From the sequence record MN850564.1: 64,000 nucleotides of DNA. One strand, written 5' to 3'. The notes beneath the pieces were generated by a model, which saw only the letters and a list, made by a program, of their open reading frames with translations, had not been told where the DNA came from and ran no database searches. Numbering within the stretch: position 1 is the first letter of the stretch; every line of letters starts with the position of its first letter. Shown here piece after piece: positions 8,968-15,380 of the stretch. The position numbers and the translations under genes were made by a program. The stretch comes from Escherichia phage humlepung.

Positions 8968-10383
8968 ATGAGCGAATTATTTAAACATGCGCACCTTCAT
9001 GCAGGTCGAACTGAAAATGGTGCTGTAAACCATACTTCATCAATGTCTGCTCTTGTAGACTTTTACAAAGCTGCTGGTTCGAGCCGTAGCAATGTAGAAA
9101 TCTTACCAGACCTGTTCTACAAAGCTTTGCGTGAGGATGTTGATGTTGCAGTTCGTATTTTACTGCATATGCGAGATGTACGAGAAGGTATGGGTGAGCG
9201 TAAAGCTTTCCGAACTGTTTTACTTAAAGCAATTGAAGATAAGATTTTAGAACCTACACAGGTTCTTCGCATTATGGATAAGATTGCAGAACTTGGTCGT
9301 TTTGATGACTTCAAAATCTTCGTAGGTACTCGTTTTGAGACAGATGCCTTCAAACATTTAGAAGCAGCATTACTAGACCCTGCAACAGCAGGTTTGGCGG
9401 CTAAGTGGTTACCACGAGTCAAACCACGTCATAAGCAGTTTGTAAAACGTTTCTGCAAGTTTGCCAACTTGAGTGAGAAAGAGTACCGCACACTGTTGTC
9501 TGCACTATCTGATACAGTTGAGCAAAAAATCTCTGCTAATGAGTTTGGTAAGATTGACTACAGTAAGATTCCTTCACTTGCTGCTGCACGTTACCAAAAA
9601 CTGTTTAACCGTAAAGATGGAGAGCGTTACAAAGCTTACATCGAGTCCTTATCAAAAGGTGAGACTAAGATTAACGCTGGTGCTGTTTACCCATACGATG
9701 TGATTAAATCTGTCAAGTATGGTAATGCAGATGTTGCTAATGAGCAGTGGAAAGCACTACCAAACTGGATGGCAGAAGGTGAAAACATCTTGTGTATGTC
9801 TGATGTATCAAGTTCAATGTCTTGGGTGAATTTTGGCTCCATTACTGCTCTGGATATTGGTGTATCACTTGCCTTGTATGTAGCAGAACGCAATACAGGT
9901 TGCTTTAAGAATGAGTTAATGGTTTATTCAACAAACCCTCACTTCATCGAACTGAGTGGTGATTTACGAAACCGTCATCGTCAGGTGATGCGACACGTTG
10001 AATATGGCTCAACTAACTTACAAGCAGCTTTTGACCGCATTCTTGAAACAGGTAAAAGAAACAACTTGACTCAGAAAGATATGCCAAGTAAGCTTATCAT
10101 CTTCTCCGATATGGAGTTCAATCAGGTTGATGGAGCTAACGGTCGTACAAACTTTGAAGCAATTCAGAGTAAGTACAAAAAAGCTGGATATGAGATGCCA
10201 CAACTGGTATTCTGGTACTTAGCAAACCGTAATGGTACTTGCGAAGTATCTGTTAAGGATAACGGTGTAGCAATGGTATCAGGGTTCTCTCCAGCCACTT
10301 TAAAAGCTCTGCTTGGTGGTGAGAAGTTTGACCCAATCAGTGTAATGCTCAAAGCAGTAATGATTGACCGTTATATCTGGTAA
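8968..10383 (+). CDS. Ro60/TROVE-like protein with C-terminal von Willebrand factor A domain (DUF2828-like N-terminus by recollection)
   Basis: MIDAS-like DVSSSMS...T...IIFSDMEFN resembling Ro60 vWA (DVSASM / FTDCETN); N-terminal TENGA...S..ALVDFY motif. Confidence 0.6.
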   Translation: MSELFKHAHLHAGRTENGAVNHTSSMSALVDFYKAAGSSRSNVEILPDLFYKALREDVDVAVRILLHMRDVREGMGERKAFRTVLLKAIEDKILEPTQVLRIMDKIAELGRFDDFKIFVGTRFETDAFKHLEAALLDPATAGLAAKWLPRVKPRHKQFVKRFCKFANLSEKEYRTLLSALSDTVEQKISANEFGKIDYSKIPSLAAARYQKLFNRKDGERYKAYIESLSKGETKINAGAVYPYDVIKSVKYGNADVANEQWKALPNWMAEGENILCMSDVSSSMSWVNFGSITALDIGVSLALYVAERNTGCFKNELMVYSTNPHFIELSGDLRNRHRQVMRHVEYGSTNLQAAFDRILETGKRNNLTQKDMPSKLIIFSDMEFNQVDGANGRTNFEAIQSKYKKAGYEMPQLVFWYLANRNGTCEVSVKDNGVAMVSGFSPATLKALLGGEKFDPISVMLKAVMIDRYIW

Positions 10384-10548: not shown

Positions 10549-10625
10549 CTCTGTTTAGCTCAGCTTGGTAGAGCGTTCCGTTTGGGGCGGTAAGGCCGGA
10601 GGTTCAAGTCCTCCAACAGAGACCA
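10549..10625 (+). tRNA. tRNA-Pro (anticodon TGG)
   Basis: 7-bp acceptor ctctgtt/aacagag, D-arm gctc/gagc, T-loop TTCAAGT, encoded CCA. Confidence 0.75.
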
Positions 10626-10632
10626 AATTAAT

Positions 10633-10710
10633 GTTCCAGTAGACAAAATGGTAAAGTCACCACTCTTTCAAAGTGGATATTTGAGGGTTCAAATCCCTTC
10701 TGGAACGCCA
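10633..10710 (+). tRNA. tRNA-Glu (anticodon TTC)
   Basis: Acceptor gttccag/ctggaac, anticodon loop cTTTCaa, T-loop TTCAAAT, CCA. Confidence 0.7.
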
Positions 10711-10715
10711 GTTTT

Positions 10716-10791
10716 GACAGAAGACCAATTACAGCAAACTTAATCTTATTCATCTGAAGGTAAATCGGACAAAGAAGAGATTTGGTCTGGT
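10716..10791 (+). repeat. Structured repeat element copy a (5' GACAGAAGACCA ... 3' TGGTCTGGTC)
   Basis: Member of four-copy family with conserved CAGAAGACC...TACAGCAA...GGTCTGG and covarying flanks. Confidence 0.5.
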
Positions 10792-10801
10792 CATTAAGAA
10801 T

Positions 10802-10878
10802 TGCGGGTATAGAGAAAGGGCGTCTCACATGTCTCATTAGCATGGTATCGGCAGGTTCGACTCCTGCACCCGCCTCCA
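10802..10878 (+). tRNA. tRNA with CAT anticodon (Met or Ile2)
   Basis: Anticodon stem catgt/gcatg, loop cTCATta, T-loop TTCGACT, CCA; 1:72 mismatch. Confidence 0.6.
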
Positions 10879-10882
10879 ATTT

Positions 10883-10946
10883 TGCAGAAGACCGTATTCA
10901 GCAACAAAATACTTTTTGCGGATAAAAGAAAAAACACGGTCTGGCA
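10883..10946 (+). repeat. Structured repeat element copy b (5' TGCAGAAGACCGT ... 3' ACGGTCTGGCA)
   Basis: Same family; flank covariation tGC/GCa. Confidence 0.5.
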
Positions 10947-10955
10947 ATGTATTAA

Positions 10956-11029
10956 GGTTAGGAAGCACATAAGGTATGTGCGGTCGCCTGTTAAGCGAAT
11001 GGCACAGGGTTCGAATCCCTGACTAACCG
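10956..11029 (+). tRNA. tRNA-Asn (anticodon GTT)
   Basis: Anticodon loop ctGTTaa, T-arm caggg-TTCGAAT-ccctg, acceptor 6/7 paired; no encoded CCA. Confidence 0.65.
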
Positions 11030-11040
11030 CAAAATTAAAT

Positions 11041-11128
11041 GTGTCGTTATCCCGTAGATGGTAGCGGTGGGGACTGTAAATCCCTTGTCATTGAGACTCG
11101 GTAGGTTCGACTCCTACACGGCACACCA
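11041..11128 (+). tRNA. tRNA-Tyr (anticodon GTA), type II with long variable arm
   Basis: 85 nt, acceptor gtgtcgt/acggcac, loop ctGTAaa, T-loop TTCGACT, CCA. Confidence 0.7.
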
Positions 11129-11133
11129 ATAAA

Positions 11134-11210
11134 GGCTATGTAGTTTAACTGGAGAAAATACTCCCCTGTCACGGGAGATGATGTGAGTTCAAGTCTCATC
11201 GTAGCCGCCA
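11134..11210 (+). tRNA. tRNA-Asp (anticodon GTC)
   Basis: Acceptor ggctatg/cgtagcc, loop ctGTCac, T-loop TTCAAGT, CCA. Confidence 0.7.
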
Positions 11211-11237
11211 ATTTTGAGAGGGCTATTTAGCCCCTCC

Positions 11238-11272
11238 CTTAAAGAGTTCTTACGAGTATTCTTTAAGGGAGC
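11238..11272 (+). repeat. Hairpin CCCTTAAAG-(agTTCTTACGAGtatt)-CTTTAAGGG
   Basis: 9-bp perfect stem; loop motif TTCTTACGAG recurs at 14277-14286. Confidence 0.5.
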
Positions 11273-11348
11273 AGAAGACCAAATACAGCAAGAATGTATG
11301 AAATTTCAAGCCAATTTAATTTTGAAAATTTAAAACTTGGTCTGGCTC
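11269..11348 (+). repeat. Structured repeat element copy c (5' GAGCAGAAGACCAA ... 3' TTGGTCTGGCTC)
   Basis: Same family; flank covariation GAGC/GCTC. Confidence 0.5.
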
Positions 11349-11354
11349 AACAAA

Positions 11355-11493
11355 TTTACAGAAGGCCGTTTACAGCAAAACTTAAACAATCTATTTCTCC
11401 GGTAAAGAAAAGGCGAAGGTTCGATTCCTTCACTCGGCAGATGTCGAGTTGGTGTAATGGTAGCACTTAAGATGATAAACAACGGTCTGGTAA
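11355..11493 (+). ncRNA. Candidate structured ncRNA (element copy d): terminal stem TTACAGAAGGCCGTT/AACGGTCTGGTAA enclosing tRNA-like T-arm and D-arm hairpins
   Basis: Internal gaagg-TTCGATT-ccttc hairpin with T-loop consensus, acceptor-like hairpin, D-arm-like gtgtAATGGTAgcac; no complete tRNA fold. Confidence 0.3.
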
Positions 11494-11639
11494 TTACCTT
11501 TGTAGATAAGTTATTAAGCTTACTTGTGAGTATGCGACCACAAAGGGTGAATGGGTAAATTCTAGATTTAAACCCAAAAAGGCACATCGCTACAGACCTT
11601 AAGCAAGTCTGGGTAGCTTATCTACAAAGATAATTTAAT

Positions 11640-11715
11640 GGAAGTGTAGCAGAATGGTGATGCGGCAGACTTTTAATCTGACAGGCGATGGGTTCGAATC
11701 CCTCCACTTCTACCA
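11640..11715 (+). tRNA. tRNA-Lys (anticodon TTT)
   Basis: Acceptor ggaagtg/cacttct, loop cTTTTaa, T-loop TTCGAAT, CCA. Confidence 0.65.
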
Positions 11716-11719
11716 ATAT

Positions 11720-11796
11720 GGTTCAGTCGCAGATAAGGTAATGCAAGGGTCTCATAAGCCCTATGAATGTGGGTTCGATTCCCATCTGAACCTCCA
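11720..11796 (+). tRNA. tRNA with CAT anticodon (Met or Ile2), second copy
   Basis: Perfect acceptor ggttcag/ctgaacc, loop cTCATaa, T-arm gtggg-TTCGATT-cccat, CCA. Confidence 0.65.
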
Positions 11797-11797
11797 A

Positions 11798-11873
11798 GCT
11801 GGTATAGTTAAGAAGGTTATAACACTCCCCTGATAAGGGAACATCGGTGGTTCGATTCCACCTACCAGTACCA
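11798..11873 (+). tRNA. tRNA-Ile (anticodon GAT)
   Basis: Loop ctGATaa, T-arm ggtgg-TTCGATT-ccacc, CCA. Confidence 0.65.
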
Positions 11874-11888
11874 ATTTCAATAAAGTTG

Positions 11889-11917
11889 TTGACATTGAGA
11901 TGTGACTACTTTATAGT
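11889..11917 (+). promoter_or_regulatory. Sigma70-like promoter TTGACA-17-TATAGT inside the tRNA region
   Basis: Exact -35, 17-nt spacer, TATAGT -10. Confidence 0.55.
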
Positions 11918-12121
11918 AACCTTAGTTTTCGTTGCGTAGCGTCTATTTTGCAAATTTAAAATAAATGCAAACGACAATGTTTTTCTGGCAGTAGCTTGAT
12001 AGGCTAAACACCAGTGAGGTCTTCCAATCCCTCATCAAAGAATTTGGCGTACTCGCCCACGGTATGATTAATAAGGTGGGCATCTTTAAGGGCTTTCTAA
12101 GAGAGTCTTTAAAGATAATTA

Positions 12122-12203
12122 CGGGGCGTATCTCAGCGGTCTTCTAAACCGCCGTTAACCGAGTAAGTGGAGTATGCGGGTTCGAGTCCTGCCGCCTCGA
12201 CCA
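12122..12203 (+). tRNA. Atypical tRNA-like gene, anticodon stem-loop gcggt-cTTCTaa-accgc (TCT, Arg-like), no recognisable D-arm, 23-nt extra segment
   Basis: 7-bp acceptor cggggcg/cgcctcg, T-arm gcggg-TTCGAGT-cctgc, CCA; only 7 nt between acceptor and anticodon stem. Confidence 0.4.
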
Positions 12204-12346
12204 ATTTAGTTAGCAGATTACTTAGACGACCTTAGCGGGTCTTCCTGTAGGGAGGTGGTCTGTATCTCATGTTTTCCAGAACATGTAAATAATCTGAGAA
12301 GGGGCTTTACAGTGTTGAGATAATACGGTAAGCTTCGAATTATAGT

Positions 12347-12429
12347 ATGGGACGATATTAAGACTCTAAGGCATGAGCAACGGCTTCCAACACCGTTTCA
12401 AAGGGGTTCAACTCCTCCGTCCCATGCCA
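12347..12429 (+). tRNA. Atypical tRNA-like gene, anticodon loop compatible with CCA (Trp) closed by a C-A pair, or 9-nt loop
   Basis: Perfect acceptor atgggac/gtcccat plus CCA, T-loop TTCAACT; D-region irregular. Confidence 0.35.
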
Positions 12430-12442
12430 AAGTCTTATTAGG

Positions 12443-12530
12443 GGTAGGTAGCGGCTAATGGTAGCCAAACTGTCTTGAAAACAGTTGCCACTGTAGAGAT
12501 ACGGTGAGGGTTCGACTCCTTTACTTACCG
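12443..12530 (+). tRNA. tRNA-Ser (anticodon TGA), type II
   Basis: 88 nt, stem actgt/acagt with loop cTTGAaa, long variable arm, T-loop TTCGACT. Confidence 0.65.
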
Positions 12531-12787
12531 CCTAATAAGATTTAAAGCCAAGCTTCATTCGGATGTTGCTTTGGTATACCGCGTGTATTGTTGTACGCAC
12601 TGATAAAGCACCTAGTAGGTGTCACGGAGAAGAGATAATATCAAGCTCTCCAAAGGTTCTAGTCACCGGATTAAACAAGACTATGCAAAGACCTTTTTAG
12701 GTCTTTTTAGAGGGCTTCTAAGGTTATTACAGCTTGTTGTGGAACCTTGTTGCTTAGGTTCTTAGAAGTTCTCTAAAAAGATTTAAT

Positions 12788-12865
12788 GGGAGATTGACGG
12801 TAATTGGTAAACCTACCATCCTTAGAAGTTGGTGTTTGAGGGTTCGAATCCCTTGTCTCCTACCA
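12788..12865 (+). tRNA. tRNA with TAG anticodon (Leu-type anticodon but short, type-I length)
   Basis: Acceptor gggagat/gtctcct with G-U pairs, loop ctTAGaa, T-arm gaggg-TTCGAAT-ccctt, CCA. Confidence 0.5.
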
Positions 12866-12872
12866 AATTAAT

Positions 12873-12948
12873 GCAGGTGTAGCAAAATGGTTATGCGGCT
12901 GACTCTTAATCAGTAAGACGATGGGTTCAATTCCCTCCACCTGTACCA
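12873..12948 (+). tRNA. tRNA-Lys (anticodon CTT)
   Basis: Stem gctga/tcagt, loop ctCTTaa, T-loop TTCAATT, CCA. Confidence 0.55.
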
Positions 12949-12954
12949 GACATT

Positions 12955-13030
12955 GGGGTCATAGTTTATATGGTTAAAATTCGAGTTTTGCAAACTTGGG
13001 AACTGAGTTCAATTCTCAGTGACTCCACCA
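12955..13030 (+). tRNA. tRNA-Ala (anticodon TGC)
   Basis: G3:U70 wobble pair in acceptor (Ala identity element), loop ttTGCaa, T-arm ctgag-TTCAATT-ctcag, CCA. Confidence 0.75.
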
Positions 13031-13036
13031 ATTAGT

Positions 13037-13111
13037 GCATCCATAGTTTAAACGGGAAAATTACAGTCTTCCAAACTGAGGTTGAGGGTTCGATTCCCTC
13101 TGGATGCTCCA
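13037..13111 (+). tRNA. tRNA-Gly (anticodon TCC)
   Basis: Perfect acceptor gcatcca/tggatgc, loop ctTCCaa, T-arm gaggg-TTCGATT-ccctc, CCA. Confidence 0.7.
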
Positions 13112-13117
13112 AACAAT

Positions 13118-13194
13118 GCTGCTTTCGTATAATTGGCTATTACACATCCCTTGTAAGGATGGAAATGCAGGTTCGAGTCCTGTGAGCAGCACCA
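13118..13194 (+). tRNA. tRNA-Thr (anticodon TGT)
   Basis: Perfect anticodon stem catcc/ggatg, loop ctTGTaa, T-loop TTCGAGT, CCA. Confidence 0.75.
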
Positions 13195-13199
13195 ATTCA

Positions 13200-13283
13200 G
13201 AGGTCAAGTGAAAGACCGCTGGTGTCAACTGAAGACCGTAACAAATTCCACGGAGTTGAGTTAGCGGCACAACTTCAGACCTC
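13200..13283 (+). repeat. Stem element AGAGGTC...GACCTCT enclosing a GAAGACCGTAAC motif
   Basis: 7-bp terminal inverted repeat; internal CTGAAGACCGTAACAAA resembles the 5' arm of elements a-d. Confidence 0.4.
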
Positions 13284-13289
13284 TTTCAC

Positions 13290-13364
13290 ACTCGCTTAGT
13301 TTATATGGTAAAACACCACCCTTACAAGATGAAGAAAAAGGTTCAAGTCCTTTAGTGAGTACCA
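13290..13364 (+). tRNA. tRNA-Val (anticodon TAC), tentative isotype
   Basis: Acceptor actcgct/agtgagt, loop cTTACaa, perfect T-arm aaagg-TTCAAGT-ccttt, CCA; anticodon stem has mismatches. Confidence 0.55.
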
Positions 13365-13365
13365 T

Positions 13366-13443
13366 GTTCCAGTATCCCAATTGGCAGAGGATGCAAGCTC
13401 AAACCTTGTATTAGTGACGGTTCGAATCCGTCTTGGAACACCA
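13366..13443 (+). tRNA. tRNA with CAA anticodon (Leu-type anticodon, type-I length)
   Basis: Acceptor gttccag/ttggaac, stem gcaag/cttgt, loop ctCAAac, T-arm gacgg-TTCGAAT-ccgtc, CCA. Confidence 0.55.
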
Positions 13444-13462
13444 ATTTAAAGAGGCTATTTAG

Positions 13463-14020
13463 ATGAGATATTTGAAGTATGCTTCATGGATTTTCCTAGC
13501 TTTACTAGAGCCATTTGCAGCAACCCTAGCAGTCATCTTAGCACCTTTCGTAGTTCCATTCTACAGTGAGAAGAAAGGACACTTACCTTTCGGGTTCAGA
13601 TGGATGGAGACATATGACAACCCAATTGATGGTGATGAAGGTCACGTTAAAAGATGGGCTAATATTAGATGGATTGGTAAACTAGGTGTCTACATGCAAA
13701 GAGTTGGATGGCTCTGGAGAAACAAAGCTTATAACTTCTCTTACCATGTATTAGGAAGAGATGTAAAAGATGTTACTAAGTGGAAAGGTAATATCAACGT
13801 AAGTTCTAACCCTGAAGATAATCAGACTGGTTATCTCCTAATGTGGAACAGGAATGCTTGGGGATTATTCGCTTTTATCCCATCAATTAAAATCTTTGGT
13901 AAACAATTTTACTGGAGAATTTATATTGGATGGAAACTAAAAAGTGTTGTCCCAGAAGAAAGAGCATTCTCAAGGGAAAGAGTTATGTTGGCATTCTTTA
14001 TTCATCCACTGAGAAAGTAA
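13463..14020 (+). CDS. hypothetical membrane protein (185 aa, Trp-rich) encoded inside the tRNA array
   Basis: ATG with AAAGAGG RBS; N-terminal hydrophobic segment. Confidence 0.55.
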   Translation: MRYLKYASWIFLALLEPFAATLAVILAPFVVPFYSEKKGHLPFGFRWMETYDNPIDGDEGHVKRWANIRWIGKLGVYMQRVGWLWRNKAYNFSYHVLGRDVKDVTKWKGNINVSSNPEDNQTGYLLMWNRNAWGLFAFIPSIKIFGKQFYWRIYIGWKLKSVVPEERAFSRERVMLAFFIHPLRK

Positions 14021-14028
14021 AGATTTAA

Positions 14029-14104
14029 AGGGGATTAGTTTACAAGGTTAAAACCTCGGTCTTTGAAATCGAAGAAGTTGGTTCAATTCCAACATCCCCC
14101 GCCA
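14029..14104 (+). tRNA. tRNA-Gln (anticodon TTG)
   Basis: Loop ctTTGaa, perfect T-arm gttgg-TTCAATT-ccaac, CCA; 1:72 mismatch. Confidence 0.6.
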
Positions 14105-14106
14105 AT

Positions 14107-14185
14107 GCTCCATTACTCCAATTGGCAGAGAGGCCAGACTTAAAATCTGTGTTATGTATCGGTTCGAATCCGATATGGAGTACCA
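14107..14185 (+). tRNA. tRNA with TAA anticodon (Leu-type anticodon, type-I length)
   Basis: Loop cTTAAaa, T-arm atcgg-TTCGAAT-ccgat, CCA; D-arm resembles the CAA tRNA. Confidence 0.5.
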
Positions 14186-14190
14186 AATTT

Positions 14191-14266
14191 AGCGGTATAG
14201 CATAACTGGCAATGCAGCAGTCTCTGAAGCTGTCTTATTAAGGTTCAAATCCTTATGCCGCTGCCA
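14191..14266 (+). tRNA. tRNA-Gln (anticodon CTG), tentative
   Basis: Acceptor agcggta/tgccgct, D-stem gcat/atgc, loop ctCTGaa, T-arm taagg-TTCAAAT-cctta, CCA. Confidence 0.55.
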
Positions 14267-14267
14267 C

Positions 14268-14294
14268 TTCTAAGGATTCTTACGAGAGTCCTTA
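14268..14294 (+). repeat. Hairpin with loop motif TTCTTACGAG (second copy)
   Basis: aaggaTTCTTACGAGagtcctt; motif shared with 11250-11259. Confidence 0.45.
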
Positions 14295-14297
14295 AAT

Positions 14298-14373
14298 GTG
14301 GCCTTATCATAAATGGTAATGACCCATGCTGTGAACATGGTCTATACGGGTTCAAATCCCGTAGGTCACCCCA
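14298..14373 (+). tRNA. tRNA-His (anticodon GTG)
   Basis: Perfect anticodon stem ccatg/catgg, loop ctGTGaa, T-arm acggg-TTCAAAT-cccgt, CCA. Confidence 0.7.
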
Positions 14374-14379
14374 ATTTAT

Positions 14380-14455
14380 AGTCCAAGTAGCTTATATGGT
14401 TAAAGCGCGTGTCTGAAAAACATGAGAAGAGGGTTCAAATCCCACTGGACTACCA
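14380..14455 (+). tRNA. tRNA-Phe (anticodon GAA)
   Basis: D-stem gctt/aagc, loop ctGAAaa, T-loop TTCAAAT, CCA; acceptor register uncertain by 1 nt. Confidence 0.6.
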
Positions 14456-14471
14456 ATTTCAAAGGTGCTTA

Positions 14472-15206
14472 ATGAAAGAGATGACAGAACAAGGTAAGGA
14501 GATTTTTAATCTCTTAAAAACCGGTAAAGGGTTTTCTAACCCACTTATTACTGGTGCAGCAGTTCTCGGTGGAACCGTAGCTGCCTCTACATCACTTGTA
14601 AGCTCTATTAGCTCTGTAACAGACCCTACAATGAAGGAGAAGCTTGTTGCTGCTGGACTTACAACAGTCCTTCTAAACAGCTTTACAACAATCCTGACAA
14701 GCACTACAGCAACCACTAAGACCCTAACAGACTACGGTCAAAAGTCTATTGATGAGTTTTCATCACGTATGCAGGTAGCAAAGGGATATTCCAATGTTAT
14801 GGGTGCAGCAGGAGAACAAGTTGGTTGTACACCATTCAGTGGTATTATGGGTGTTGCTACAGAGTATGGTCAAAAAGCTATTGACATGATTAACAGTACA
14901 CTAGATAGTGTTAATGGTGTGTTAAGTGACTTACAAGACGCTATTGATGAGGGTCTTGATACTGTTTCTGATTTAGCTAATCAGGCTGTTAGTAAGATTA
15001 ATGAAGGTATTTCAAAGATTACAGCTTATGCAGATGAAGTTGTGCAGATGATTGAAGAAGAAGCTGCCCTTATTGCAGAGTACCTTAAAACGAATATCAA
15101 TGGGTTCTTAGCAGGTATCTTACCAGACTGGTTTGATGATGCTTGTAAAACTGGTGTAATTGATGCTATTGCAACACCAGAAATGAAGAACGCATTACAG
15201 AAATAA
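14472..15206 (+). CDS. hypothetical protein (244 aa, Ala/Thr/Ser-rich)
   Basis: ATG at 14472 with AAAGG RBS; the track start at 14409 would overlap tRNA-Phe. Confidence 0.5.
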   Translation: MKEMTEQGKEIFNLLKTGKGFSNPLITGAAVLGGTVAASTSLVSSISSVTDPTMKEKLVAAGLTTVLLNSFTTILTSTTATTKTLTDYGQKSIDEFSSRMQVAKGYSNVMGAAGEQVGCTPFSGIMGVATEYGQKAIDMINSTLDSVNGVLSDLQDAIDEGLDTVSDLANQAVSKINEGISKITAYADEVVQMIEEEAALIAEYLKTNINGFLAGILPDWFDDACKTGVIDAIATPEMKNALQK

Positions 15207-15207
15207 T

Positions 15208-15300
15208 GGAAGATTAACCCTAAAAGGTAAGGGAGCAGTTTGCTAAACTGCCAGTAGCTGAGAAATCGGTGTACCAGTTCAAGTCTGGTATCTTCCTCCA
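15208..15300 (+). tRNA. tRNA-Ser (anticodon GCT), type II
   Basis: Perfect acceptor ggaagat/atcttcc, stem gcagt/actgc, loop ttGCTaa, long variable arm, CCA. Confidence 0.7.
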
Positions 15301-15304
15301 ATTT

Positions 15305-15380
15305 GAATCCGTGACAGAAATGGCTATGTGCCTGTCTGCAAAACAGGTTTATAAGGGTTCGAGTCCCTTCGGATTCTCCA
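15305..15380 (+). tRNA. tRNA-Cys (anticodon GCA)
   Basis: Perfect acceptor gaatccg/cggattc, stem cctgt/acagg, loop ctGCAaa, T-arm aaggg-TTCGAGT-ccctt, CCA. Confidence 0.75.

Follow-up and report, generated by a model that had tools for sequence, protein, structure and literature searches.

The tRNA cluster of Escherichia phage humlepung raises the question of how a gene is to be read that carries a leucine anticodon but that lacks the long variable arm of a normal bacterial tRNA-Leu. Three such genes occur in the window, which is the whole 64,000-nucleotide stretch of sequence record MN850564.1 that was analysed. The earlier note on this DNA started from the premise that bacterial tRNA-Leu is normally type II whereas these three are of type I length, and this is broadly right, as the E. 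coli genes leuV/P/Q, leuZ, leuW, leuX and leuU are 85-87 nt long with a variable arm of 13-15 nt. We consider it quite probable (roughly 80%) that the three genes encode working phage leucine tRNAs in which the long variable arm is gone but every other leucine mark is retained. This reading draws on gene structure, conservation, the Leu-type body of the tRNAs, a match to codon usage and the occurrence of short Leu tRNAs in many other phages, all of which come from the present analysis.

Structure of the three short tRNA-Leu genes

The source phage is Felix O1-like (Ounavirinae), and the layout of its tRNA cluster is common to Felix O1, Si3, Moogle, SUSP1 and phiEa21-4. The Si3 cluster also holds a chimeric Leu gene. 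The features of the humlepung cluster are as follows.

10549..15380, plus strand: tRNA cluster, 24 genes, all on the plus strand with small ORFs between them (ARAGORN, Rfam)
11041..11128, plus strand: tRNA-Tyr(GUA), internal control, 88 nt, 15-nt variable arm kept (ARAGORN)
12122-12200: damaged Arg-like tRNA gene without a D arm (Rfam profile search)
12443..12532, plus strand: tRNA-Ser(UGA), internal control, 90 nt, 20-nt variable arm kept (ARAGORN)
12788..12865, plus strand: tRNA-Leu(UAG), type I, 78 nt including the encoded CCA (ARAGORN; Rfam 40.0 bits)
13366..13443, plus strand: tRNA-Leu(CAA), type I, 78 nt including the encoded CCA (ARAGORN; Rfam 44.0 bits)
14107..14185, plus strand: tRNA-Leu(UAA), type I, 79 nt including the encoded CCA (ARAGORN; Rfam 47.5 bits)
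15208..15300, plus strand: tRNA-Ser(GCU), internal control, 93 nt, 21-nt variable arm kept (ARAGORN)

Weak Rfam tmRNA and miRNA matches within the cluster were discarded, being far under their gathering scores.

ARAGORN reproduced exactly the coordinates and the anticodons (TAG, CAA and TAA) that had been given for the three Leu genes in the earlier note, with a length of 75-76 nt without CCA. With Rfam RF00005 all three fold as ordinary cloverleaves (E values of 1e-6 to 1e-8), and all three score above 29 bits, the curated gathering threshold that was used to decide membership. The variable regions parsed from the ARAGORN structures are UGUUU (5 nt) in tRNA-Leu(UAG), AUUAGU (6 nt) in tRNA-Leu(CAA) and GUUAUGU (7 nt) in tRNA-Leu(UAA), and the gap between the anticodon stem and the T stem in the Rfam alignment is just 5-7 nt in each of them. 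A type II tRNA has a variable arm of at least 13 nt that forms a stem-loop, which loops of 5, 6 and 7 nt do not provide. The three genes instead fit the definition of a type I tRNALeu, namely a Leu anticodon together with an approximately 5-nt variable loop that keeps nucleotide 48, given that their loops of 5-7 nt end in U48. A refolding that would create a long arm or change the anticodon, which the earlier note had named as grounds for dropping its description, was looked for, and no refolding of the three Leu genes did either. The short-armed Leu genes are real, far beyond what chance would produce.

The tRNA-Leu(CAA) gene has a G1-C72 pair, A73-CCA, a 3-bp D stem, an 11-nt D loop (CAAUUGGCAGA) and the anticodon loop CUCAAAC. 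The tRNA-Leu(UAA) gene has G1.U72, A73-CCA, a D stem of 3 bp with the same 11-nt loop, and the anticodon loop CUUAAAA. The shared D region that had been noted earlier is real, but the string quoted for it was slightly too long: cccaattggcagagg is exact in tRNA-Leu(CAA) alone, tRNA-Leu(UAA) reads tccaattggcagaga at this site, and the string common to the two D regions is ccaattggcagag. The tRNA-Leu(UAG) gene has G1.U72, A73-CCA, a D loop AAUUGGUAA with A14, A15, G18, G19 and A20a, the anticodon loop CUUAGAA (A37), a U30.U40 mismatch and the variable loop UGUUU (U48). Its D arm is irregular, requiring either a 3-nt connector or an additional loop base. Homologues of 77 nt with 81-84% identity in slur09 (T5-like) and GEC_vB_MG (rV5-like) suggest a third way of reading this arm, in which a normal U8-G9 connector would be followed by a D loop with one extra base. 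Among cluster members of type I length this gene also scores lowest in Rfam, and its position 37 is A, as opposed to G in the CUN readers of the host; these irregularities count against reading it as a working leucine tRNA. The Rfam frame for tRNA-Leu(UAG), with a start at 12789, a 6-bp acceptor stem and a U discriminator, was dropped in favor of the ARAGORN frame, which has 7 bp, A73 and CCA as do all of its neighbours.

Leucine identity elements and proposed decoding

[quoted passage not shown] Identity positions were read from ARAGORN-anchored segments, used in place of a MAFFT alignment that covered nine Leu tRNAs of Ounavirinae but offset the acceptor strands by one column. All three phage genes contain A73, U8, A14, A15, G18G19, A20a, U48 and the T loop UUCGAAU. 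Specifically, an examination of the determinants for an E. coli-type LeuRS located A73 followed by CCA, the bases of A15:U48 (which presumably form the tertiary Levitt pair in three dimensions), G18G19, A20a, U8:A14 and T-loop U54, U55, C56 and A58 in every one of them. In the short Leu tRNAs compared, position 15 covaries with position 48, giving either A:U or G:C. [quoted passage not shown]

The resemblance to the host readers leuW (UAG), leuX (CAA) and leuZ (UAA) covers the anticodons, A73, A15:U48, the AAUYGGUAG D loop and the 3-bp D stem, and the G1.U72 of tRNA-Leu(UAG) and tRNA-Leu(UAA) is likewise found in E. coli leuZ and leuU. However, there are several differences. [quoted passage not shown] The tRNA-Leu(CAA) gene also has C38, unlike the A36A37A38 motif cited in PMC9976931, which counts against the leucine reading.

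[quoted passage not shown] A looser form was present in 46 of the 62 Leu and 19 of the 498 non-Leu tRNAs of this sample and within the window in the three Leu genes only. The tRNAscan-SE 2 isotype models score the corresponding tRNAs of Mooglevirus Sf14 highest as Leu (PMC12482277), and the humlepung tRNA-Leu(CAA) has exact copies in the other sequenced Moogleviruses. The suggestion in the earlier note that these are phage-specific Leu isoacceptors thus gains support from the E. coli LeuRS identity set, from the anticodon-independent signature and from the Sf14 isotype scores.

Codon usage points the same way. Among leucine codons in 68 window ORFs the shares are TTA 26.4%, TTG 13.6%, CTA 11.6% and CTG 14.4%, as compared to roughly 13, 13, 4 and 50%, respectively, in E. 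coli. A comparison with codon usage had been proposed as a check, and the phage indeed uses the A/T-rich codons UUA, UUG and CUA heavily, in agreement with the three anticodons, which are also those of the host single-copy minor genes leuZ (UAA), leuX (CAA) and leuW (UAG). In NrdA, TTA, TTG and CTA codons fall on Leu-majority columns in 17 of 24 cases and other Leu codons in 25 of 33, with all six kinds of Leu codon alike falling on Leu or Ile/Val/Met columns.

If the three genes are working leucine tRNAs, then they would be transcribed along with the phage tRNA cluster, with the CCA already encoded, and would be charged by the LeuRS of the host (E. coli or Salmonella). This enzyme would read A73 together with the core shape given by A15:U48, G18G19, A20a and the D-loop/T-loop contacts, and would ignore the anticodon and the long arm. 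The charged tRNAs would decode UUA, UUG and CUA, plus further CUN codons through wobble, which the AT-rich phage uses far more than does the host, whose readers are single-copy minor tRNAs. We propose that the arm is expendable in Leu but has to be kept in Ser and Tyr, LeuRS being the only one of the three synthetases that can dispense with it. Its loss may also shield a fast-evolving phage tRNA from being taken for a tRNA-Ser or a tRNA-Tyr. Expression, charging by the host LeuRS and a benefit of arm loss are all features that we infer from sequence.

Conservation and distribution of the short form

More than 250 records of Felix O1-like phages contain the three Leu genes at 97-100% conservation, annotated as tRNA-Leu, and the short form is retained throughout Ounavirinae. 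The tRNA-Leu(UAG) gene is 100% identical in SUSP1, tRNA-Leu(CAA) is 100% identical in both Moogle and SUSP1, and tRNA-Leu(UAA) is 97-100% identical in these two phages. [quoted passage not shown] Where orthologues have diverged, three base pairs in the anticodon stem of the Si3 copy of tRNA-Leu(UAG) have changed in a compensatory manner, and the phiEa21-4 copy of tRNA-Leu(CAA) keeps the D arm and has acceptor, anticodon and T stems that are altered yet fully paired.

Short Leu genes of 74-79 nt with the same architecture, annotated as tRNA-Leu, are present in slur09, GEC_vB_MG, Moogle and phiEa21-4 and in phages of Mycobacterium, Streptomyces, Klebsiella, Cronobacter and Enterococcus. These genes are 80-100% identical to some gene of the window or to a Moogle-type tRNA-Leu(UAG), but they differ in their hosts and in their sets of anticodons (for example, AAG in phiEa21-4). 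The architecture recurs in hundreds of phage records. In a quasi-random sample of viral contigs the short form accounted for 17 of 62 Leu tRNAs versus 0 of 40 Ser and 0 of 16 Tyr, such that about one-quarter of the Leu tRNAs lack the textbook long arm and Ser and Tyr tRNAs never do. The idea that every coliphage Leu gene is short is ruled out by T5, whose gene at the equivalent position is a type II Leu. A short Leu gene is also found as a chromosomal singleton in many Actinomycetota. Our literature searches found no paper that treats phage tRNA-Leu without a long arm as a general trait. The short Leu arm is an under-described but ordinary phage trait that is not peculiar to humlepung, and as genes these tRNAs are nothing new, with individual copies already annotated as tRNA-Leu in hundreds of phage genomes. 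Their novelty is lowered further by the wide occurrence of short Leu tRNAs among phages and by the earlier work on such a tRNA in Streptomyces.

The Streptomyces coelicolor type I tRNALeu(CAA) is charged by its own LeuRS, with good charging of a type I tRNALeu requiring a minimum of five variable-loop nucleotides including position 48 (Fan et al. 2019, PMC6614811). As a point against charging of the phage tRNAs in E. coli, it was not charged by E. coli LeuRS, which is described as type II-only and of which the C-terminal domain touches arm nucleotides 47f-47i in a crystal (cited in PMC6614811). [quoted passage not shown] In contrast, the Streptomyces tRNA has C48 and is encoded by a chromosomal gene, whereas the window tRNAs have U48 and are encoded by phage genes; moreover, the Streptomyces LeuRS is unusually long, while the window tRNAs must work with an enterobacterial LeuRS. 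Judging from these sequences, C48 in place of U48 may account for the failure of E. coli LeuRS on the Streptomyces tRNA. Animal mitochondrial type I tRNALeu, which obtains leucine identity via A73 and A14 (PMC9976931), has a similarly short variable loop but is floppy and degenerate, is served by a dedicated mitochondrial LeuRS and has no evolutionary link to the phage genes.

Alternative explanations and wider meaning

A different reason for the missing arm would be selection to escape host defence, and the earlier note had likewise listed variants that escape host anticodon nucleases. In this case the genes would still encode Leu tRNAs, spared by nucleases that target the arm or the anticodon loop, such that decoding survives cleavage of host tRNA-Leu. 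A retron HEPN nuclease does give tRNA-Leu fragments cut at U33, the anticodon loops of the phage are unlike those of the host (CUUAGAA versus UUUAGGU for UAG, with C32 in all three), and short Leu genes turn up repeatedly in enterobacterial phages of groups that are not related to one another. There is also a parallel in the T5 tRNA-Tyr, which resists retron-Eco7 via an altered variable loop and is likewise a phage type II copy that differs from the host in the variable region; however, the arm of this tRNA is altered and not removed, and its anti-defence role is experimental whereas the short Leu is known here from sequence. Literature searches gave no example of a nuclease directed at the variable arm of tRNA-Leu and only precedents that concern other tRNAs, and the authors of the Sf14 study considered escape from nucleases improbable in these phages (PMC12482277). 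Retention of a type II Leu by T5 also argues against escape, as does the chromosomal singleton of Actinomycetota where no phage-defence logic applies, and loss of a dispensable arm accounts for the Leu-only pattern without defence. We regard defence escape as unlikely. Somewhat broader is the proposal that arm removal is an adaptive and repeatedly evolved phage strategy, yielding Leu decoders that are invisible to arm-recognising nucleases and that cannot be mistaken for SerRS or TyrRS substrates in any host. This is doubtful, but if true then enterobacterial LeuRS would efficiently charge type I tRNALeu given A15:U48, which would contradict the published view that among prokaryotic enzymes only the Streptomyces LeuRS handles both types.

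The genes could also be decaying or non-translational tRNA-like elements that are uncharged, being either passengers in a mosaic cluster or in a non-decoding role. Damaged members do exist, such as the D-armless Arg-like gene and the chimeric Leu of Si3, Rfam gives the three Leu genes lower scores than any other cluster tRNA of type I length, and one type I tRNALeu is not charged by E. coli LeuRS (PMC6614811). This is nonetheless very improbable given near-perfect cross-genus conservation above that of several neighbouring tRNAs, compensatory stem changes, intact CCA ends and tertiary-pair bases, and an architecture that is the same throughout hundreds of phage records. A switch of identity, in which another synthetase charges these tRNAs and UUA, UUG or CUA is partly read as another amino acid, is scarcely credible. 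The type I shape is unusual among bacterial tRNA-Leu, and natural CUN reassignments via altered tRNAs, as occur in yeast mitochondria and some yeasts, provide a precedent. [quoted passage not shown] The earlier note had listed tRNAs of another identity with Leu anticodons as an option, and the lack of foreign identity marks together with NrdA UUA, UUG and CUA codons on Leu-conserved columns speaks against it.

According to the only biochemical study of bacterial type I tRNALeu (PMC6614811), such tRNAs are not charged by E. coli LeuRS. Type I tRNALeu from coliphages and Salmonella phages, with the complete identity set of E. coli, make this conclusion cheaply testable. They also have potential uses as compact leucine tRNA scaffolds and as probes of the true requirements of LeuRS.

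The three short tRNA-Leu genes and their cluster

Positions 12400-14500 match more than 200 Felix O1-like phages (hosts E. coli, Salmonella, Shigella and Citrobacter) at 97-99% identity, which indicates that the window is a segment of a Felixounavirus (Ounavirinae) genome. Those records already annotate the three tRNA-Leu genes at the same places, and the Felix O1 genome paper lists the genes as Leu without remarking on how they are shaped (PMC3185647). They belong to a cluster of 24 tRNA genes called by ARAGORN on the plus strand (10549-15380), and are named here by anticodon.

Short tRNA-Leu genes called by ARAGORN, with scores from the Rfam tRNA model RF00005 (threshold 29 bits)
12788-12865, plus strand, tRNA-Leu(tag), 78 nt including encoded CCA, 40.0 bits
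13366-13443, plus strand, tRNA-Leu(caa), 78 nt including encoded CCA, 44.0 bits
14107-14185, plus strand, tRNA-Leu(taa), 79 nt including encoded CCA, 47.5 bits

In the ARAGORN structures the anticodon-to-T-stem stretch is 5, 6 and 7 nt in Leu(tag), Leu(caa) and Leu(taa), respectively; it measures 15 nt in tRNA-Tyr of the cluster, and the two tRNA-Ser have 20 and 21 nt. By these lengths the Leu genes are type I (short variable loop) and the Tyr and Ser genes of the same operon type II (long variable arm). The E. coli K-12 genes leuV/P/Q, leuZ, leuW, leuX and leuU, in contrast, are 85-87 nt with arms of 13-15 nt. The earlier note's description of short, type-I-length genes with TAG, CAA and TAA anticodons is thus borne out, and refolding, which might have revealed a long arm or other anticodons, still gives ordinary short-loop cloverleaves with both ARAGORN and the Rfam model, where all three align above threshold. 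All three genes exist at the stated positions, and type I is the right reading. In each of the four Ounavirinae genera examined, every Leu gene is short and the Ser and Tyr genes are long.

The explanation that fits best is that these are ordinary tRNALeu isoacceptors encoded by the phage, of a short-armed type found widely among phages. This was one of the explanations offered in the earlier note, and it is favored by the Leu-type bodies and the match to codon usage. Short-armed tRNALeu has already been characterized in Streptomyces, so the kind itself is known; the sole point of wider interest is the putative charging of such short tRNAs by enterobacterial LeuRS.

Leucine identity and decoding

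E. coli LeuRS depends on A73, A15:U48, G18G19 and A20a of the D loop, and D-loop/T-loop contacts, whereas the anticodon and long arm are dispensable and armless tRNALeu variants are still active (reviewed by Giegé and Eriani, PMC9976931). All three window genes have A73, U8, A14, A15, G18G19, A20a, U48 and a UUCGAAU T loop. Positions 8-26 of Leu(caa) and Leu(taa) have the exact E. coli tRNALeu layout (20 nt, 3-bp D stem, 13.22 mismatch, N-AAUUGG-YAG-A loop), and the G1.U72 of Leu(tag) and Leu(taa) is likewise present in E. coli leuZ and leuU. We took this D arm with A73 and U48 as an anticodon-independent Leu signature and scored it on 560 sequence-distinct, parsable tRNAs out of 570 found in an independent viral-contig sample, where it occurred in 32 of 62 Leu tRNAs versus none of the 498 others. 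Within the window only Leu(caa) and Leu(taa) have the signature, and only the three Leu genes have a looser form of it. Isotype scoring by covariance models is available at one remove, as the Leu model scored Leu_TAG, Leu_CAA and Leu_TAA of Mooglevirus Sf14 best in a published tRNAscan-SE 2 analysis (PMC12482277). The window's Leu(caa) is 100% identical to those of the Moogleviruses compared (Moogle, Sf13 and Sf19) and its Leu(taa) 97% identical to that of Moogle, but the Sf14 Leu_TAG score may not apply to Leu(tag) because Moogle's Leu(UAG) differs from the window's. Judged by sequence, the window genes are leucine-type in body, beyond the anticodon.

The alternative that these are tRNAs of another identity with Leu anticodons is disfavored by the Leu marks in all three bodies and by an alignment of the window's NrdA with 41 homologues (48-59% identity). 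Specifically, 17 of 24 TTA/TTG/CTA codons and 25 of 33 CTT/CTC/CTG codons are at Leu-majority columns, with exceptions that are mostly Ile, Val and Met, so that this small sample (24 + 33 codons) gives no sign of reassignment to another amino acid.

We also made the comparison with phage codon usage suggested earlier. In 68 window ORFs (39.3% G+C) the Leu codons are TTA 26.4%, TTG 13.6%, CTT 28.2%, CTC 5.8%, CTA 11.6% and CTG 14.4%, compared with about half CTG and only about 4% CTA in E. coli. The phage anticodons match the host single-copy genes leuZ, leuX and leuW rather than the multi-copy CAG gene. This anticodon set and codon usage fit ordinary codon compensation, already proposed for TTA by Whichard et al. 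in the Felix O1 genome paper (PMC3185647).

Comparison with relatives gives signs of function. In Moogle and SUSP1, which represent other genera, the counterpart of Leu(caa) is 100% identical and that of Leu(taa) 97-100%, versus 76% for the neighboring tRNA-Ala and 79-81% for tRNA-Thr. Si3 Leu(tag) has three consecutive anticodon-stem pairs changed on both sides (CCAUC/GUUGG to CCUCG/CGAGG), and in phiEa21-4 Leu(caa) the D arm is retained, with acceptor, anticodon and T stems that have diverged but are fully paired. Leu(tag) is irregular. In the ARAGORN drawing, 3 nt separate its acceptor stem from a 3-bp D stem that is closed by a C.U pair; the Rfam frame begins one base later, which shortens the acceptor stem to 6 bp and makes U the discriminator. 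Homologues in T5-like slur09 and rV5-like GEC_vB_MG (UG-AUG-GAAUUGGYAUA-CRU) instead suggest a normal U8-G9 connector, a C11.C24 mismatch and a D loop enlarged by a single U. These homologues share the U30.U40 mismatch, and pair 29-41 covaries, with G-C in both of them and A-U in the window. Position 37 is A, where E. coli CUN readers have G.

Occurrence of the short form, charging and loss of the arm

An IMG/VR scan for Leu anticodon loops followed at type I spacing by a GGTTCGAATCC T arm gave at least 120 matches, and ARAGORN called a tRNA-Leu of 73-79 nt at 89 of the 120 listed (at least 89). The loci of the matches listed hold at least 131 short Leu genes (at least 127 distinct sequences), of which 118 of 131 have A73 and 113 of 131 have U48. 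In a second viral sample, picked by a pattern lying 3' of the variable region, which makes it blind to arm length, short forms made up 17 of 62 Leu, 0 of 40 Ser and 0 of 16 Tyr tRNAs, and all 17 have A73 and U48; the resulting 27% is a rough figure, as some long Leu genes may be host genes beside prophages. Leu(tag) has more than 250 BLAST records at 80-90% identity, including 77-nt homologues (81-84%) in slur09 and Salmonella phage GEC_vB_MG. T5, however, retains an 85-nt long-form Leu(UAG), so that short Leu genes are frequent but not universal in phages. Bacterial assemblies also contain them, mostly as single genes in Actinomycetota and in a few cases in large arrays (22-34 tRNAs). Among these bacterial loci (L244-L363, e.g. 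L261, L264, L297, L300 and L318), short tRNA-Leu(CAA/UAA) genes belonging to one sequence family, GCCCCGGUAGCCCA.CGG.AGAGGC...GGUUCGAAUCC, are singletons in many Actinomycetota, the streamlined genomes of Ca. Planktophila and Nanopelagicaceae among them.

The chief evidence against working phage leucine tRNAs charged by the host comes from Fan et al. 2019 (PMC6614811). They showed that S. coelicolor has a type I tRNALeu(CAA) which the organism's single LeuRS charges, and that its variable loop needs at least five nucleotides, position 48 among them. In their hands E. coli LeuRS charged type II tRNA of Streptomyces and left type I uncharged, and ScoLeuRS is given as the only known prokaryotic LeuRS charging both. 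That Streptomyces substrate, however, has C48, and the Streptomyces short Leu genes in our scan have G at the position numbered 15, whereas the window genes carry the A15:U48 pair reportedly needed by E. coli LeuRS. The phage tRNAs may thus be adapted to enterobacterial LeuRS. Fan et al. do not mention phages, and theirs was the only paper with the phrase 'type I tRNALeu' in the literature searched. No description of phage short-armed tRNALeu was found there either, which is weak evidence of absence as only a minority of subscription journals was covered.

Bacterial TyrRS works on type II tRNA. So does SerRS, for which arm size is the major identity element (PMC9976931). With LeuRS independent of the arm, the restriction of short forms to Leu needs no special selection. 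In E. coli tRNALeu, C2-G71 is an antideterminant against SerRS (PMC9976931); Leu(tag) has G2-C71 and Leu(caa) U2-A71, and in armless tRNAs drift at this pair would presumably carry no mis-serylation risk. Escape from host tRNA nucleases, raised in the earlier note for anticodon nucleases, is a minor rival account of arm loss. The variable arm is a real target in at least one type II tRNA and a retron HEPN nuclease yields tRNA-Leu fragments, but these are cut at U33, no arm-directed nuclease for tRNA-Leu was found in the literature searched, and in the Sf14 study escape was considered unlikely for phages of this group (PMC12482277).

Exchanges and irregular genes in the cluster

Two unrelated short alleles with 63% identity occur in the Leu(UAG) slot (Moogle L008 3426-3502 versus window 12788-12865). 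The window type has G9 and is related to T5-like and rV5-like phage genes; the Moogle type has A9/C13 and is related to actinophage genes, with relatives (74-83% identity, nearly all annotated tRNA-Leu) in Mycobacterium, Streptomyces, Klebsiella, Cronobacter, Enterococcus and Pseudomonas phages. Some phages named Felix O1-like carry the Moogle type as well, so this tRNA has been swapped as a cassette. Si3 tRNA-Leu(taa) (L002 4001-4079) is a chimera with its first 24 nt from Leu(caa) and the remainder from Leu(taa), and its acceptor stem no longer pairs completely; the deletion between the shared D arms also removed a DUF7338 ORF and tRNA-Gln(UUG).

In the window Leu(caa) and Gln(UUG) flank the DUF7338 ORF (13463-14020, plus strand, 185 aa; some records call it a membrane protein or holin), and Moogle has tRNA-Arg(ACG) in its place. 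A DUF7217 ORF (14472-15206, plus strand, 244 aa) is embedded after Phe. Directly upstream of the cluster is a 471-aa DUF2828 and DUF7788 ORF (8968-10383, plus strand), called 'RNA-binding protein' in RefSeq relatives and also next to tRNA genes in Si3, Moogle and SUSP1. ARAGORN structures are irregular for tRNA-Met(CAU) (10802-10878; U1.C72 mismatch, 3-nt connector), tRNA-Gln(UUG) (14029-14104; A1.C72), tRNA-Phe(GAA) (14380-14455; 3-nt connector) and tRNA-Asn(GUU) (10956-11030; encoded CCA incomplete).

A tRNA-like gene at 12122-12200 (plus strand; RF00005 31.7 bits, missed by ARAGORN) occupies the slot of a normal tRNA-Arg(UCU) in Moogle and SUSP1. It retains a 7-bp acceptor stem, the anticodon arm GCGGU-CUUCUAA-ACCGC, a T arm and CCA, but just some 7 nt stand where the D arm should be, and about 23 nt separate the anticodon and T arms. 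It is a pseudogene or else an Arg(AGA) tRNA lacking the D arm; an AGA-reading tRNA was noted as expected yet missing in the Felix O1 paper. A partial match at 11382-11432 (plus strand; 22 bits, below threshold, model positions 7-64), within a predicted minus-strand ORF (11330-11587), may be a tRNA remnant.
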